Source: Moniliella sp. 'wahieum' (Eukaryota). From it: 64,000 bases of DNA. Below the pieces are notes generated by a model. That model did no database searches, was not told the origin of the DNA, and was given only the letters and a program-made list of their open reading frames with translations. The stretch lies in NCBI GenBank assembly GCA_003971905.1, contig RSEE01000001.1:1240001-1304000 (forward strand), given 5' to 3'. Below are positions 4,404 to 62,476 of the stretch, one piece after another (the first letter of the stretch is position 1; every line of letters begins with the position of its first letter). A program made the position numbers and the translations under genes.

Positions 4404-4907
4404 GTGCTCGATGGCGCTGCGTGCGACAGGGAGAGTGGGCATGGCGGCGGGGGCTGGGCGCTGGGGTCGCAGGCGCATCCGCTGGCATCGCCGGGAGGGG
4501 GGGGGGGGGGGGGAGCGACGAGGTGCGGGCGGAAGGCGGAGCAGTTGCGCCAGCGTCCGCGCCGCCTGCCGGCTGCTATCTTCTGAGATCCCACATCTCC
4601 ATCTCCATCTCGCCTGTATGGGCCACGTGACATCCCTTCCCAGATCGATCTCAGATCTCATTGTGAGTCCGGAGGGAGCGCTGACCAGTGACTCCATGGG
4701 ACGACGGCTGATGGGTCACGTGGTTGGTGCCTCCGGCTGCGTCGCAGCTCTGGGCCGGAAGACAGCGCCCGTGTGCCGCGGTGAGTCGACGATGCTTCCG
4801 GTGGGGTTAGGTTGCGGGGCCATCGACTGGGCCACCTGCTTGCTGCCTCCTGGCCTCCTGTGCGCCCCACCCCGCCTCGCCCCCCGCCTCCCCACCACCA
4901 CCACACC

Positions 4908-6037
4908 ATGGCTTCCCCTCAGCGCATCCGCACGCCCCTCACCGACCTCTTTGGCATCCAGCACCCCATCCTGCTTGCTGTGCGTCCTGCTCTCCTTGCC
5001 TCTCTGTCGTCTCCGCTGACCCGCCCTCATTTCACAGGGCATGAACGTCGCCTCTGGCCCCGACCTGGCCGCTGCCGTGACCAATGCCGGCGGGCTCGGC
5101 GTGATTGGCGGGCTCGGGTACACTCCCAAGATGCTGCGCGAGCAGATTGGGTACATCAAAGAAGGTCTGGTGGACAAGAAGGCGCCGTTTGGGGTGGATC
5201 TGTTGCTGCCTCAGGTCGGCGGCGAGGCGCGCAAGACCAACTACGACTACACGGGGGGCACCTGATGGAATTGGCCGATGTGATTGTGGAAGAAGGGGCG
5301 AAGCTGTTTGTGTCGGCGGTTGGCGTGCCACCGAAAGCCCTGGTGGAGCGGCTGCACAAGGGCGGCGTTGTGGTGGCCAATTATTGGCCATCCGAAGCAT
5401 GCCTCAAGGCTGCCCAAGCAGGCGTAGACATGATCATTGTCCAAGGCGGCGAGGGCGGCGGTCACACGGGCGATGTGCCGTTTAGTGTGCTGGTGCCGCG
5501 GGTGGTGGACCTGGTCAACGAGAATGGCTGGAAGTCGCCTTTGACGGGCAAACCGGTGATTGTGGTGGCCGCGGGCGGGGTGTGGAACGGGCGGTCGCTG
5601 GCTGCGTCGCTGGTCTATGGCGCGGCCGGGGTGTGGGTTGGCACGCGCTTTGTCGCGTCGGTGGAGAGTGGTGCACCCAAGAAGCACAAGGAAGCTGTGG
5701 TCAGCGCGAACCACGAGAGCGATGTGCGCACCCTCATCTTTACCGGCCGCCCTCTCCGGCTGAAAAAGACGCCCTACATTGAGGACTGGGAGGCCAAGCC
5801 GGACGAGATCAAGCGGCTCACTTCCCAGGGCATCATCCCCTGGAAGTATGATTTGGAGCACGATGATGCCCAAGGCACCAACGAGGACCGTTCCCGCGAC
5901 AAGCACCTGATGGGCAAGTGCGCTTCCGTCATCAATGACATTCTCCCGGCCAAGGTGATCATTGATCAGTTTGTTGACGAGGCGGCCGCTGTCCTGACTG
6001 CCTCGAGCGCCACTGTGGTGCCCCGGCCAAGCTGTAG
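4908..6037 (+). CDS. Nitronate monooxygenase / 2-nitropropane dioxygenase family (intron ~4980-5037)
   Basis: IRTPLTDLFGIQHPILLA|GMNVASGPDLAAAVTNAGGLGVIGG, PFGVDLLLPQVGG, LFVSAVGVPP, QGGEGGGHTG, AAGGVWNGRSLAASLVYGAAGVWVGTRF. Confidence 0.92.
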
Positions 6038-6779
6038 CTGCTTTGGCCCAATGTGTTTTTTGGGTTGTGGCTACCGTGACCGACGTCGGTATCCGGGTAG
6101 AATGAATGTCTTTAGCCACGCCATGCGGTCAAGGGTAGGCAACAGCCAGCGTAATGTAATAGTGAGATAGCCTCGATTTCGGCTTTGGCTTTGTGTGCAC
6201 ACACAATCTAGCACCGCGCGTTACACGCCGTGGGGTCTGGGGCCTTGACTTCAAGGGGGTAGAACAAAAAGGTGCGCGAGGCATCATATGCCCACTGGCT
6301 GTCCCAACCCTACATCACAGCTGCCCAGTGGCGACCATCATATGGGTCCCTTCCCCCCCGCAGCACTCACATGTCACACAAGCAACAAAAACATCTGGGA
6401 CCACTCTGCCCACATCCATCTAACCTCACCGTTCAGCCCAAACAATCTCGCCCGCACGCGAGACGTCATCGCGCCATCCGACATCCTGGATCGAGGCCAG
6501 CAGGGGCTGAGTTAGTCGTGACGCTATTCTTAGTCCAGATGCAGAGGAGACCCCACTGCAGTATTGCTCAACCAAAACGCGCATATTAGGTCTATGCACC
6601 TCTACACAGTGGGAATCTCTTGTTGGATAGGGCATCGAGTGCATTGCCTCTCTCGTTTCACGATATCACACAGGGGGTGGGGCAAGGGGAGGGGAGCGCG
6701 CAGCGGCTGACTAGCGAACCAACAAGCGCGGCACAGGCAAGCAGGACGCAATCGCCCCAGGCCAGTACGCGTCACCTGT

Positions 6780-7878
6780 TCACAGGAAATAGTCCGGTAC
6801 CCGCCGCGACACCAACGGCTCTCCCGCTCGCGGGCCGGGTCAAACTGCAAAAAGGTGTACTTGAGATTCTCGTCAATTTCCATGATCGCCGCTTGGTTGC
6901 CGCAGCGGTAGCAGTAGTTGGGAGCGGAAAAGACAGTGACCACATTGCGTTCTTGGACCAGTTGAAGCCATCCATAACAAGTTGATGCGCGCGCGAGACA
7001 AGGGTGAGCCCATTGTTGTGGTTGAAGGCTTCCGAGATATCTTGGCCAAACGTATAGCCAGCGCCACGCGGGCTGATCCCCCATCCACAACGGTCGTCCG
7101 GGTCGGACCAGAGCAGGTCACACATCGGACCCTCGTGCGGCACCTCCTGGATCCGGTCAATGGAACGAATGTGGTCCAGCGTGTCAATCGACGGCGACAG
7201 GCCGCCGTGCAGACAAAAGATCTGGTCCTCAATAAGGGCCGTCAAGGGCAGGTAATCAAACAGTCGGTAAAGTACTTCCACACATTCGCGCTTCCATACT
7301 TGCGCACATTCATCGTAAAAGCCATACACTTGGGTAATCTGCCGCGACTCGTGGTTGCCACGCAAAATGGTGATGCGGTCGCGGTACCGCACCTTGAGCG
7401 CAACTAGAAGCGTCACCGTCTCGACCGAGAGTAGTAGCCGCGGTCCACATAGTCGCCCATGAAGAGATAGTTGGTGTCGGGCGAGTTGCCGCCTATCCGG
7501 AACAGCTCGGTGAGGTCGTGCTGGCGGCGAGGAAGAAGGAGCAGAGGGGAGAAGGGTTAGGCGAGAGGCAGAGAGAGAGGCGGAGAGAGAGGGGCGCAGC
7601 ACATACGAATTGGCCGTGAATGTCGCCGCAGACAGTGACAGGGCAGCGGACAGGCTGGACATTGCTCTCGTCAAGAAGAATCTCGTGCCTGGCGATCGAA
7701 TCAAGGATGGCATCCATGCGTCCATCGAGTCAGCATGCATTCTCCACCGCGCAGAGCATGGGGGGGGGGTCGGCGCACGACGCACCTTGTCGCACAGACG
7801 CTTGACGTCAGCCTCGGAGAGCTGCTTGCACTCGCTCAGGTGTGCGATCCACTGGTCCTGCTCGCCAACGTCGACCAT
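6780..7878 (-). CDS. PPH21: Ser/Thr protein phosphatase PP2A catalytic subunit (2 introns)
   Basis: [97 protein letters not shown]-terminus [14 protein letters not shown]. Confidence 0.96.
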
Positions 7879-8306
7879 GTCTGCGGGGAAGGGGGGGTGG
7901 AGGGTGGAGGTGGGGGTGGGCGGAGGGCATCGTTCCACTCGATCCAACGTGGGCTGAACGGGCCCGTGACCGGTGACTTCCCTCGTGACCCGTGCGGACG
8001 CGGGCCATCCGCCCACTGCCCCTGTGGCTGGGGCGCTGGCGCGGCCGCAGAGCAAAAGGCCGCGTGCGCCAACCCTAGCACGGGGCGCGCAGCGGTGCGG
8101 CCGCATCACACCTGTGTCACGCGTCGCTCGTCACGCGTCCCCGGCCTCTCTCCCGCGTGGTGCGTACTGGCGCCGCTCTTTGCTCAGCCAGCCTCAGCTG
8201 CGCGTTCCGCCCCCCGCATTCCGCCCCGTCCCGCCCGTTCTCTTCTTCTTGGCCTGCTGCCGCTGCCGCCCGGCCCGACCGCCCCTCCGCCAACCCAACC
8301 CCACCC

Positions 8307-60772: not shown

Positions 60773-61328
60773 TTCGGCTGCCTGCACCGTGCTGCTCCGA
60801 ATCAGAATACCCCTCACACCAATGTCTTCACTCCGGGATTGGCCAAATCCCATCCGCCCCCCTTTCTTCTTCGTCCGTGTCATGAGGTCCGTTGTTCCCT
60901 CGGGGTTCATTCATGATGGTTTTGCAGTTCCTGCGGTGCTTGGCTCTCAGGCGAGAGACTACTCTTTATAGTCCTTGGGGAGATGGGAAGACGAGAAAGG
61001 GTCCGGATCATTTTCCAATGGATGAGTCAGATCACCTTTCCCACCTGACACCTTTTCTCTTCCTTTCTTGCCACTCTGTGCGCTTGCCTGTTTCTGCCGC
61101 GGAGGCTAGGAGGCTGATATGCGAGTAAAGCGTTCTAGGAGACTGGGAGAAGAGAGGCGTAGAGAGGGCCATGACTGCTCGTGAAGGCGGAAGGTTACGT
61201 CGGAAGTGGTATCGTTGAGCGCCTGCGATGCTGGTCGTTCCATCCAAGCTCTGTGGTGGATGTCACGGCCGCGCGAGGGATCGGAGGCATATATTGCGAA
61301 CCAGTCCTTCTTGGTAGAGTAACCACAA

Positions 61329-61423
61329 GCTTCAATGGGTTAGTGGTATACTACATCGTTGCCAGACTGGCCCCGTGCCTGTAAGACGTCGATGTGACAG
61401 GGGTTCGATTCCCCTTTGAAGCA
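61329..61423 (+). tRNA. tRNA-Gly(GCC) with 24-nt intron (61365-61388)
   Basis: Acceptor GCTTCAA/TTGAAGC-A, anticodon arm CATCG-TT GCC A[intron]T-CGATG, T arm AGGGG TTCGATT CCCCT; the intron contains TGGC complementary to the anticodon loop. Confidence 0.93.
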
Positions 61424-62111
61424 TTCCTTTTGGATGGTCCACAGTTTGACATGAACAACCCGTTTCCTATCCTGCACGCTCCCCTTGAGAAGGATTTGAT
61501 GGACTCGCTGTTCTATCCGACTCTCCCCTATGCTTTGCTGCCCTTAATCCTTCACCCCCCTCTTTTTTTCTCTTTCTCTATGTAGACCTCGTCTTCTTTT
61601 ACAACAGCCTCATATACCCAACAGAACGTGCCATTGTATCAAAACACCAAGAGGAAGTTGAATCGCACGGCAACAAAACAAATTAAAGCGCGCGGGGAAC
61701 GATGGGTTGGTTCGGGTGGTTGAGGGTGGGTGGGACGTGGTGTTGGGAGGCGGTGAGGATGGCAGAGGGGGGCAGACGGGAGTGGTTGAATGTTGGATGG
61801 ATGAGGCCCTAGGTGACCGATGACTAATGATTGCTACGGTACTATGGGCCCTGAGTTACTGCGTGGGGTTAGTACGTTAGTACTTCGTCGATGGCTCCCA
61901 CTGGCTCCCCACACTTGCAGCAGCGCTCAGAAAAAAAGGACGCCCGTCGCGGCAACCCTACCTACCGCCTGGCCAGCGTCACATGGCCCGTGACGCGTGA
62001 CGCATGGAGCAACGCGTGACACGCGAGGTTATGCAGCGGCAGGCGGCGGCGCCACTACGCCACACTGGCACTGTGCCGCGTGTTGGCAGTGTTGAATCGG
62101 GTGGATGCATG

Positions 62112-62153
62112 TGACATGTGGCATGCGACATGTGACAGGTGATGCATGATGCA
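62112..62153. repeat. 7-bp-period mixed-core array
   Basis: TGACATG TGGCATG CGACATG TGACAGG TGATGCA TGATGCA, upstream of the BTB gene. Confidence 0.85.
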
Positions 62154-62476
62154 TGCGCAGCTGCCCTCTGGATCTGATGCATGATCATTACCTCAGCCCC
62201 AGCGCTCAGCCGCCCAGCCTGCGCCCGGCGATGATCGATGATGCCGATGATGGATGATGCATTGGAGCGCCCCTGCCTGCGTTGCCCCTCGCATCGCCTC
62301 CACTTGTCACCACCACGCCTCCACTTGTCACCACCACTACCACCACCACCACCATCATCATCCTCTTCTTGTAGCTCCGCTTTTCTTGTCTTGTCTCTCT
62401 TCATCCCGCCTTCTCGCCGCCCACCGCGCCACTCTCATTCATCACGCCACCCGCCCAACCCCTCCTTTCCGCCACC

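Follow-up and report, generated by a model that had tools for sequence, protein, structure and literature searches.

Seven-base-pair arrays built on a T-N-A plus palindromic tetramer rule upstream of genes in a 64-kb window of Moniliella sp. 'wahieum'

Introduction

The 64,000-nucleotide stretch of Moniliella sp. 'wahieum' analysed here (GenBank assembly GCA_003971905.1, contig RSEE01000001.1, positions 1,240,001 to 1,304,000; hereafter the window) carries many short tandem arrays with a period of 7 bp in the DNA between its genes. An earlier note, made from the letters of the window, had described these arrays as one family with the unit T-N-A + palindromic tetramer, where N is a free base, and had offered two readings of them: a promoter element read by its symmetry or shape, or the footprint of a hairpin and template-switch process. 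The question raised by the locus is whether such a rule holds, and what could impose it on units that differ in sequence from array to array. Both readings are possible in the light of the analysis described below, in which all counts refer to the one 64-kb window.

Results

The arrays obey a common unit rule

The unit can be written as T-N-A followed by a palindromic tetramer, which amounts to one free base next to a palindromic hexamer, A-xyy'x'-T, and it is repeated every 7 bp. Tandem Repeats Finder returned 26 rows of period 7, and by eye 19 of their consensus units were rotations of this unit. Exact runs of at least 15 nt were concentrated at period 7, with 22 runs compared to 2, 3, 0, 2 and 2 at periods 8 to 12, and 15 of the 22 consisted of a palindromic hexamer plus one base; all 15 hexamers were of the A....T type. 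Among exact 7-bp duplications (at least two copies), 24 of 40 obeyed the rule, where shuffled units predict 1.97, bearing out the family proposed in the earlier note. Perfect words formed 18 pairs at 7-bp spacing and 9 at 14-bp spacing, compared to 0.42 and 0.38, respectively, in 40 dinucleotide shuffles. A comparison of the window with dinucleotide-shuffled DNA gave 15 chains of at least two perfect units against a mean of 0.43 and a maximum of 2 in 30 shuffles. With other flanks in place of T-N-A, the corresponding numbers were 0 for A-N-T, 0 for C-N-G and 4 for G-N-C.

A tolerant scan produced 50 candidates, from which 30 tandem arrays were retained whose adjacent units differ by no more than one base. 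These arrays contain 89 units, 53 perfect and 36 imperfect; 15 arrays have two units, seven have three, five have four, and one each has five, six and seven, and all are short tandem repeats in the usual sense of head-to-tail copies of a 1-9-bp unit. The examples given in the earlier note were all found at or near their places, although the one at about 4650 is marginal, having one perfect unit and partial copies. A coding mask based on codon usage, for which 2,872 Pfam-supported codons served as the training set, flagged only 22% of the window and was too insensitive; it was excluded from the statistics.

An artefact of assembly or sequencing is hardly credible as the source of the arrays, which are short (14-49 bp) and diverse, carry point variants, are embedded in unique sequence, and occur only in the intergenic DNA that separates intact genes. 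We conclude that the arrays follow a sequence grammar that is real, far from random and apparently undescribed. The open-access literature searched contained no description of T-N-A + palindromic tetramer repeats, consistent with the lack of precedent stated in the earlier note, and its matches to literal array 13-mers were confined to cloning or primer contexts.

As an outside control, 128 metagenome loci (134 stretches, mostly prokaryotic) were fetched by the presence of three ACGCGT hexamers in register. The 152 exact heptamer runs in this set that were not ascertained in this way included six with any palindromic hexamer and one with a hexamer of the A....T type. Since just one of these runs obeys the rule, the T-N-A/palindrome bias is not general to heptamer repeats. 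Most of the fetched contigs are of low G+C or bacterial type, with TCACxxx-like, non-palindromic heptamer arrays, and the multi-core T-N-A rule was seen in none of the 128 loci, which thus yielded no relative. Dense and varied heptamer arrays were present in six contigs (L010, L015, L017, L031, L047 and L052; 0.35-0.51 G+C), and TCAC/GTGA was common to these (TCACGCG, TCACTCT, TCACTGT, TCACCCA and others), which places them in the bacterial heptamer-repeat class.

Complementary cores, a constant spacer base, and decay

Of the 16 possible cores, 11 are represented among the 30 arrays (GATC, CGCG and AGCT in five arrays each, TGCA in four, and others), and across the 11 cores x and x', and likewise y and y', covary without base preference. 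Covariation of this type is what base-pairing is commonly deduced from, and it is not directly readable by a protein. A complementarity rule that holds over so many cores implies that the symmetry most likely arises from DNA pairing with DNA, and not from read-out by a protein; the likeliest sources are a fold-back, a looped-out hairpin, or the use of the complementary strand as template.

The cores could instead belong to chance-duplicated clusters of unrelated palindromic transcription factor (TF) sites, such as ACGCGT MluI cell-cycle boxes (MCBs) or ACGT-core bZIP sites. ACGCGT, the MCB of yeasts, is indeed among the commonest hexamers, and ACGT and CACGTG words adjoin an array in the ISWI promoter. 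However, the CGCG core occurs in just 5 of the 30 arrays, and independent factors would not be expected to share one frame (an A....T hexamer plus one base, 7 bp) over 11 unrelated cores. Furthermore, C....G, G....C and T....A palindromes, which are bound by many factors, form 0-4 chains compared to 15, and we consider TF-site clusters highly improbable. The idea of a methylation substrate, also raised in the earlier note, is weakened by the lack of a constant substrate, as neither CpG nor ApT is shared by every core.

For the free base N, G is the commonest choice (15 arrays), followed by C (10), A (three) and T (two). The base is constant along the array in 29 of the 30, and alternates at 35692-35712 alone. 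Such constancy points to growth by translation, that is, by slippage, since in growth by reflection, with copying of a fold-back, successive units would carry N and its complement in turn. The imperfect units mostly carry single substitutions that break the palindrome (CGCG to CGTG, CGCA or CGGG; TGCA to TGTA or TGGA). Outside the arrays, A-pal4-T hexamers numbered 189 against 163.8 ± 12.6 (z ≈ 2), and T-N-A-centred 7-mers 182 against 173 ± 13. As the words are barely enriched outside arrays, the phenomenon is one of tandem amplification, and the little enrichment, together with the palindrome-breaking variants, suggests that palindromy marks what gets amplified and that the arrays then decay. 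The 36 imperfect units of the 89 look like products of decay rather than maintenance, and palindromy is not visibly maintained. The readings offered in the earlier note are supported in part.

The rule word also recurs at other periods, in three of nine runs at period 8 and one of three at period 11, against 0.59 expected for periods 8-13 together. These occurrences, and the mixed 7-, 8- and 10-bp spacing at 55737, imply that the word matters more than the period.

Folding does not explain the T-N-A flanks

When the arrays were folded as single-stranded DNA, the cores formed the stem and T-N-A a three-base loop. Relative to shuffles, the folding energy had a z of -5.4 for the array at 32733 and -5.3 for that at 35692, and of the 15 arrays with three or more units, 11 had a z of -1.8 or lower. 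Model four-unit arrays gave -6.71 kcal/mol with T-N-A, -6.63 with A-N-T, and -8.8 with C-N-G or G-N-C. Hairpin stability was therefore rejected as the reason for T-N-A: A-N-T folds equally well, and C-N-G and G-N-C fold better. That these flanks are absent or at chance, though they fold as well, suggests that something sequence-specific, either an enzyme or a binding protein, imposes T-N-A.

Core switches, spacing and array ends

The in-register switching of cores described in the earlier note is real but rare. It is seen in perfect units at 24375, 28905 and 56099, and also at 62112 (CATG to TGCA) and 33732 (CCGG/CGCG). We also agree that plain slippage of one unit is insufficient, as it explains neither the choice of unit nor these few switches. 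A shared N was slightly commoner between neighbouring arrays than expected by chance (10 of 17 pairs compared to a permutation mean of 6.0; p = 0.03). Neighbours within 300 bp shared a core in 4 of 28 pairs (p = 0.24), which is no enrichment, and local duplication of arrays was rejected on this basis as the cause of clusters.

One process that could produce these patterns is DNA breakage directed to T-N-A in accessible promoters, either by a host nuclease or by a transposon that duplicates a 3-bp T-N-A target. What remains after each round of breakage and repair would be a palindromic filler of four bases with T-N-A on either side. The filler would be made up of two bases contributed by each inverted terminal repeat, or would arise when a hairpin-capped end is opened, and repeated hits would build the 7-bp register. 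Scars of this kind would explain jointly why T-N-A is constant and has an identical N on either side of the core, as in a target-site duplication, and why the filler is palindromic; they would also account for the switches at 24375, 28905, 56099 and 62112, for frequent births of arrays, and for their clustering in promoters. They would fit the words with extra bases as well, namely TCGA-TGA at 7, 8 and 10 bp (55737) and the period-8 and period-11 forms. T-N-A is nearly self-complementary, and in this it may resemble the 3-base overhangs of PIF/Harbinger-type target sites. Microhomology at the target duplication has been studied for mPing (PMC4561436), and MULE, hAT and Transib elements are reported to form hairpins on flanking DNA (PMC5499845).

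On the other hand, at least 11 fillers would need as many element termini, whereas the ends of a transposon superfamily are conserved. The Pfam scan (E ≤ 1e-5), which covered 298 of 308 window open reading frames (ORFs; at least 100 aa), reported no transposase-like family, no element flanked by T-N-A/palindrome words was seen in the window, and the arrays have no constant boundary, some ending in T-N-A and some in the core. The known PIF/Harbinger duplications are TAA/TTA, whereas 25 of the 30 arrays have G or C as N. Taken together, these points make break scars an unlikely origin. A hAT-type target (nTnnnnAn) less one base, which would give T-nnnn-A, was rejected by inspection, as the arrays show A-nnnn-T.

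Many arrays lie upstream of genes

Start codons were assigned provisionally as the first in-frame ATG of Pfam-supported ORFs. By this measure, arrays are located about 200-550 bp upstream of the ATGs of eight genes, with a third array of the phosphoglycerate kinase (PGK) gene at about 880 bp (Table 1), and others occupy one gene-poor stretch of 3 kb. In the SOD and ACBP genes, both of which are likely to have an upstream exon, the arrays precede the first conserved residues by at least 170 bp (SOD) and at least 330 bp (ACBP). None of the 30 arrays falls in the three definable convergent 3'-3' gaps (about 2600-2760, 6170-6775 and 41946-42685). The claim that coding DNA contains no arrays was nearly right, apart from a weak case at 17336-17349 in putative ISWI codons and the 4650 site, which lies within an ATG-started putative ORF. 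Exclusion from coding DNA is expected of any 7-bp repeat because changes in copy number shift the frame, and because three TGA or TAA units leave no reading frame of that strand without a stop. On the sense strand of the nearest gene, the arrays read TGA/TAA in nine cases and TCA/TTA in six (hand tally), giving no orientation rule; this tally argued against two candidate functions, an initiator-like TCA and a three-frame stop pad. A TGCA array is present once in each orientation in the divergent promoter between SOD and the carnosine-N-methyltransferase-like (CARME-like) gene (39874 and 40153).

This distribution bears on whether the arrays are a selected promoter element read by DNA structure, with T-N-A as the specifically contacted part. 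Such an element would extrude hairpins or cruciforms, or resist nucleosomes, and would either simply keep the promoter open or serve as the target of a structure-specific factor. The consistent distance from the eight ATGs, the empty convergent gaps, and the TGCA arrays of the divergent promoter all fit such an element. The presence of several cores per promoter is easier to grasp if any palindrome serves, and the asymmetry between T-N-A and A-N-T (15 versus 0 chains) needs a sequence-specific agent, for example a protein. However, selection for cruciforms should have alternated N with its complement, as just one array does; the arrays have an N:N mismatch every 7 bp and are not perfect inverted repeats, save for 35692-35712. 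The palindrome-breaking changes and the absence of an orientation rule likewise speak against such an element, and any non-coding repeat of a compact genome will often fall in promoters. The association with promoters made in the earlier note is supported by the positions of the arrays relative to provisional start codons, but the multimeric TF that it envisaged on successive units is sterically unlikely, since a dimeric protein should not be able to fill successive sites 7 bp apart. We consider a selected element improbable, though somewhat likelier than break scars.

The densest cluster comprises 11 of the 30 arrays in 32.6-35.7 kb, and its last two-thirds coincide with the G+C trough of the window (0.487 at 34001-36000 versus 0.54-0.67 elsewhere). 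From 33731 to 35673, no ORF reaches 100 aa. The gene-poor segment at 33400-36000 could be a long regulatory region or, by analogy with Malassezia, a short regional centromere; the centromeres of Malassezia are G+C troughs of the short regional type. A 26-nt direct repeat (33878-33903 and 34017-34042, 139 bp apart) spans a TCA-GATC array and its non-repeat GCCTC flank, with two units of the array in one copy and three in the other, the one hint of a change in copy number by whole units. Dispersed direct repeats of 14-20 nt occur close by (32522/32626 and 32904/32987), and these repeats suggest local duplication in this part of the window.

Gene content and lineage of the window

The window is nuclear DNA with an overall G+C of about 58% and carries intron-containing fungal housekeeping genes, as identified by Pfam in ORFs of at least 100 aa (Table 1); further families present are a cation-efflux protein, GH12 and Nas2. 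Three tRNA genes were found with Rfam, only one of which, tRNA-Lys CTT, is recovered by ARAGORN; their lengths of 85-95 nt indicate that all three probably contain introns. Weak two-word T-N-A/palindrome matches are located within a few hundred base pairs of each tRNA gene. The best identity of the window PGK to any protein in a large collection is at most 80%, and the top matches of a variable ISWI exon (Tilletiaria, Violaceomyces, Tilletia, Testicularia and Ustilago) reach just 42-45%. Judged from these protein matches, the host is a Ustilaginomycotina-like basidiomycete, and the low identities of PGK and of the ISWI exon indicate that it has no close sequenced relative.

Other repetitive sequences were also observed. 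An 18/36-bp periodic repeat at 40785-40953 encodes a His-Asp/His-Ser-rich tract (HDHDHS...) whose frame leads into the CARME-like gene, and a second, similar His-rich 18-bp repeat lies at 51149-51210. G-rich tracts ((GGGGTG)n, G19 and (GGA/GGGA)n) occur at 24046-24117, 28658-28800, 30700-30750, 31810-31837 and 51282-51315; several are directly upstream of genes and are candidate G-quadruplex-forming promoter sequences. At 56040-56095, just 3' of the GH12 stop, TATA-rich words (CTATATATACGG ... CACGTATATATTAG) adjoin the units at 56099-56112.

Table 1. Arrays and genes of the window (window positions; arrays are listed without strand; start codons are provisional)
Feature	Position	Strand	Context or evidence
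TCA-GATC, one perfect unit + partial copies, marginal	4651-4657
TCA-CGCG, degenerate unit, TCA-CGCG, TCC-CCGG	8117-8144		239-266 bp upstream of PP2A catalytic-subunit ATG 7878
TGA-GATC x2, perfect	13134-13147
Weak 2-unit case	17336-17349		putative first codons of ISWI gene
TCA-CGCA TCA-TGTA TCA-CGCG, degenerate	17562-17582		ISWI promoter
TGA-TCGA TGA-TCCA	17603-17616
TGA-CGCG, 4 units, 1 perfect	17667-17694		315-342 bp upstream of ISWI ATG 17352
TGA-GTAC + two degenerate units	19430-19448		about 180-200 bp upstream of PGK ATG 19250
TCA-GGCC TCA-GGCA	19778-19791
TGA-GATC x2, perfect	20124-20137
TTA-CCGG TTA-TCGA TTA-TCGG, in-register core switch	24375-24395		376-396 bp upstream of WDR26-like ATG 23999
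TGA-AGCT x2, TGA-ATAT, TGA-TGCG, in-register core switch	28905-28932		upstream of ACBP gene
TCA-TCGA x2 + CAA-CCGG	32633-32653
TAA-CGCG, 5 units, 3 perfect	32733-32767
CGCG-TAA x3, perfect	32929-32949
TGA-TGCA, 4 units, 2 perfect	33013-33040
TGA-CATG TGG-CATG	33063-33076
AGCT cores with GA/TC spacers (period 6, one-T overlap), then TGA-AGCT x2, TCA-AGCT TCC-AGCT	33150-33202
TGA-GCGC + C (period 8, x2); TGA-GGCC + TCCC (period 11, x2)	33256-33299
TTA-CCGG / CGGG / CGCG, 7 units, 4 perfect; longest array	33732-33780
TCA-GATC x2	33883-33896		copied with GCCTC flank 139 bp downstream
TCA-CATC TCA-GATC x2	34022-34042
TCA-AGCG TCA-AGCT	34286-34299
TCA-AGCT TGA-AGCT TCA-AGCT; sole N-alternating array; perfect 14-nt palindrome	35692-35712
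TCA-TGGA x2, then TCA-TGCA x2	39874-39901		upstream of Mn/Fe-SOD gene
TAA-GGCC with 1-nt deletion	40113-40139		SOD/CARME divergent promoter
TGA-TGCA x2 + decayed units	40153-40180		206-233 bp upstream of CARME-like ATG ~40386
TGT-CTAG TGA-CTAG	46498-46511		263-276 bp upstream of CPSase ATG 46235
TGA-CGCG TGA-CGCA TGA-CGCG	53712-53732		249-269 bp upstream of aldo-keto reductase ATG 53463
TAA-GCGC + A, period 8, x2	54071-54086
TCGA-TGA word at 7-, 8- and 10-bp spacings	55737-55775
TCA-ACGT TCA-AAGT, then TCA-GATC TCA-GACC	55929-55974
TGA-ACGT TAA-GATC, both perfect, core and N differ	56099-56112
TTA-GTAC + G, period 8, x2	61868-61883
TGA-CGCG TGA-CGCA	61991-62004
TGA-CATG running in register into TGA-TGCA x2	62112-62153		324-365 bp upstream of ATG 62477
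TGA-TGGA TGA-TGCA	62248-62261
Ribosomal protein L11/L5 gene	1766-2599	+	Pfam
OGG1 gene	3506-4102	-	Pfam
Nitronate monooxygenase gene	4785-6167	+	Pfam
PP2A-type phosphatase gene	6775-8130	-	Pfam; ATG 7878; array 239-266 bp upstream
ISWI gene	14020 to ~17350	-	Pfam; ATG 17352; arrays 210-342 bp upstream
PGK gene	18010-19316	-	Pfam; ATG 19250; arrays 180-198, 528-541 and 874-887 bp upstream
WDR26-like WD40 protein gene	21231-24125	-	Pfam; ATG 23999; array 376-396 bp upstream
TatD gene	25552-26340	+	Pfam
ACBP gene	27659-28813	-	Pfam
Ferredoxin gene	36486-36923	-	Pfam
Mn/Fe-SOD gene	39224-39725	-	Pfam
CARME-like gene	40953-41946	+	Pfam; ATG ~40386; arrays 206-267 bp upstream
Carbamoyl-phosphate synthase (CPSase) gene	42685-46322	-	Pfam; ATG 46235; array 263-276 bp upstream
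Aldo-keto reductase gene			Pfam; ATG 53463; array 249-269 bp upstream
Gene starting at 62477			arrays 216-486 bp upstream of ATG
Three tRNA genes	42179-42263, 49546-49631, 61329-61423		Rfam

Discussion

No class of repeats known to us or found in the literature searched has the T-N-A + palindromic tetramer rule, and the nearest systems each share only some of its properties. Unstable tandem repeats in yeast promoters, as Vinces et al. are said to have described in 2009, lie in nucleosome-free DNA. The arrays resemble these repeats in consisting of short head-to-tail copies upstream of genes and not in coding DNA, and in having slippage-like sizes. However, the yeast repeats are A/T-rich and follow no rule, whereas the window units are about half G+C, with G+C-rich examples such as TGACGCG, TTACCGG and TAAGGCC, and carry four constraints (the T, the A and two complementary pairs).

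Hairpin-forming repeats such as CNG triplets expand as their folded loop-outs evade repair, and palindromic loops reportedly escape mismatch repair in yeast meiosis, an observation attributed to Nag, White and Petes in 1989. Like these expandable repeats, the window arrays have a self-complementary unit with one unpaired base per repeat and are predicted to form single-strand hairpins. They are unlike CNG triplets in having a period of 7 instead of 3, many units in one frame, and fixed T and A flanks, and the heptamers that would come closest to the CNG case, those flanked by C-N-G, formed no chains in the window.

Cut-and-paste transposons leave excision footprints, such as TA-CWG-TA for Tc1/mariner elements, and PIF/Harbinger elements make TWA duplications. 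These share with the arrays a duplicated short target around a small palindromic remnant and one ambiguous central base, and within arrays each core is indeed flanked by T-N-A with the same N. Footprints are, however, single events with a remnant set by the ends of the element, whereas the window shows arrays in tandem, with no fewer than 11 remnants and an N that is mostly G or C; no element was seen there, nor a transposase-like family among the scanned ORFs.

Heptamer repeats are also reported from bacteria and cyanobacteria, including GGGAATC in Xanthomonas and the STRR of Nostoc (Rehm et al. 2015, PMC4692102). They share with the arrays the 7-bp period, the intergenic location and the many unit variants per genome, but their units are non-palindromic, symmetry arises through paired inverted arrays, and the hosts are prokaryotes, whereas the window unit is itself palindromic. 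The heptamer runs of the metagenome contigs, 146 of 152 of which lack a palindromic hexamer, are of this non-palindromic kind. A palindromic unit among fungal nuclear genes with introns does not belong to the bacterial simple sequence repeats or STRR. Microsatellites of the (A)n-(T)n type that vary by sliding have been described in the mitochondria of Fusarium (PMC7218506). They are likewise palindromically organised and located in fungal intergenic DNA, but consist of mononucleotide runs around a short spacer, without a heptamer unit or T-N-A rule.

We tentatively favour, with somewhat less than even confidence, a mutational origin, by which the arrays would be a lineage-specific class of hairpin-prone promoter microsatellites. 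Strand slippage would lengthen and shorten the arrays, as the constant N and the copy numbers declining from 2 to 7 suggest. Amplification would be limited to units whose looped-out copies can fold back, with the four-base cores paired and T-N-A at the tip. Folded loops of this kind are generally poorly removed by loop and mismatch repair, and their extrusion would be favoured by the negatively supercoiled, nucleosome-poor DNA of promoters. Different cores may be joined in register by occasional template switches at the shared T-N-A, with which the shared N of neighbouring arrays is compatible, and the units would later be eroded by point mutations, the arrays being tolerated only outside coding DNA. 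The forms with extra bases (periods 8 and 11) fit looped-out hairpins better than a cut of fixed length.

Several points weigh against hairpin slippage. The stability of the hairpins does not favour T-N-A, yet T-N-A is the flank that forms chains (15 versus 0, 0 and 4). The first duplication of a single-copy heptamer cannot come from slippage. The number of arrays, about 30 in 64 kb with varied cores per promoter, implies that frequent new births are needed, and the model supplies none. Hairpin escape from repair is general to eukaryotes, and it fails to explain a pattern unknown elsewhere. The position about 200-550 bp upstream of genes fits a selected promoter element equally well. The strict T-N-A, which lies outside the hairpin-slippage model, probably reflects the sequence preference of some enzyme or step. 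A secondary effect of the arrays on promoter chromatin is possible.

For now, the arrays are best filed among promoter microsatellites, as a variant with one truly unexplained side. This side, the fixed T-N-A together with the frequent births, may be the sign of a new DNA-processing activity. It is conceivable, though doubtful, that this branch of the smut subphylum has an undescribed DNA-writing process, in the form of T-N-A-directed breaks and fold-back repair in open promoters, or else a structure-recognised element. If the former were true, palindromic heptamers left by repair would be a new natural mutational signature; if the latter, T-N-A would be the sole base-specific contact; in either form, eukaryotic genome biology would have a new sequence rule in the combination of complementarity with a fixed T-N-A at a 7-bp period. 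More generally, arrays of mutational origin would be the mark of a promoter-specific DNA transaction, whose signature is a pairing-derived symmetry with an enzyme-like preference for T-N-A, and would offer a natural experiment on repair escape by hairpin-forming loop-outs, while arrays with a function would represent a promoter signal set by symmetry instead of sequence, for which there is little precedent. They may also serve as hypervariable promoter markers, with possible effects on expression. Either way, the arrays provide a simple, scorable genome signature by which an undersampled fungal lineage may be placed and traced.

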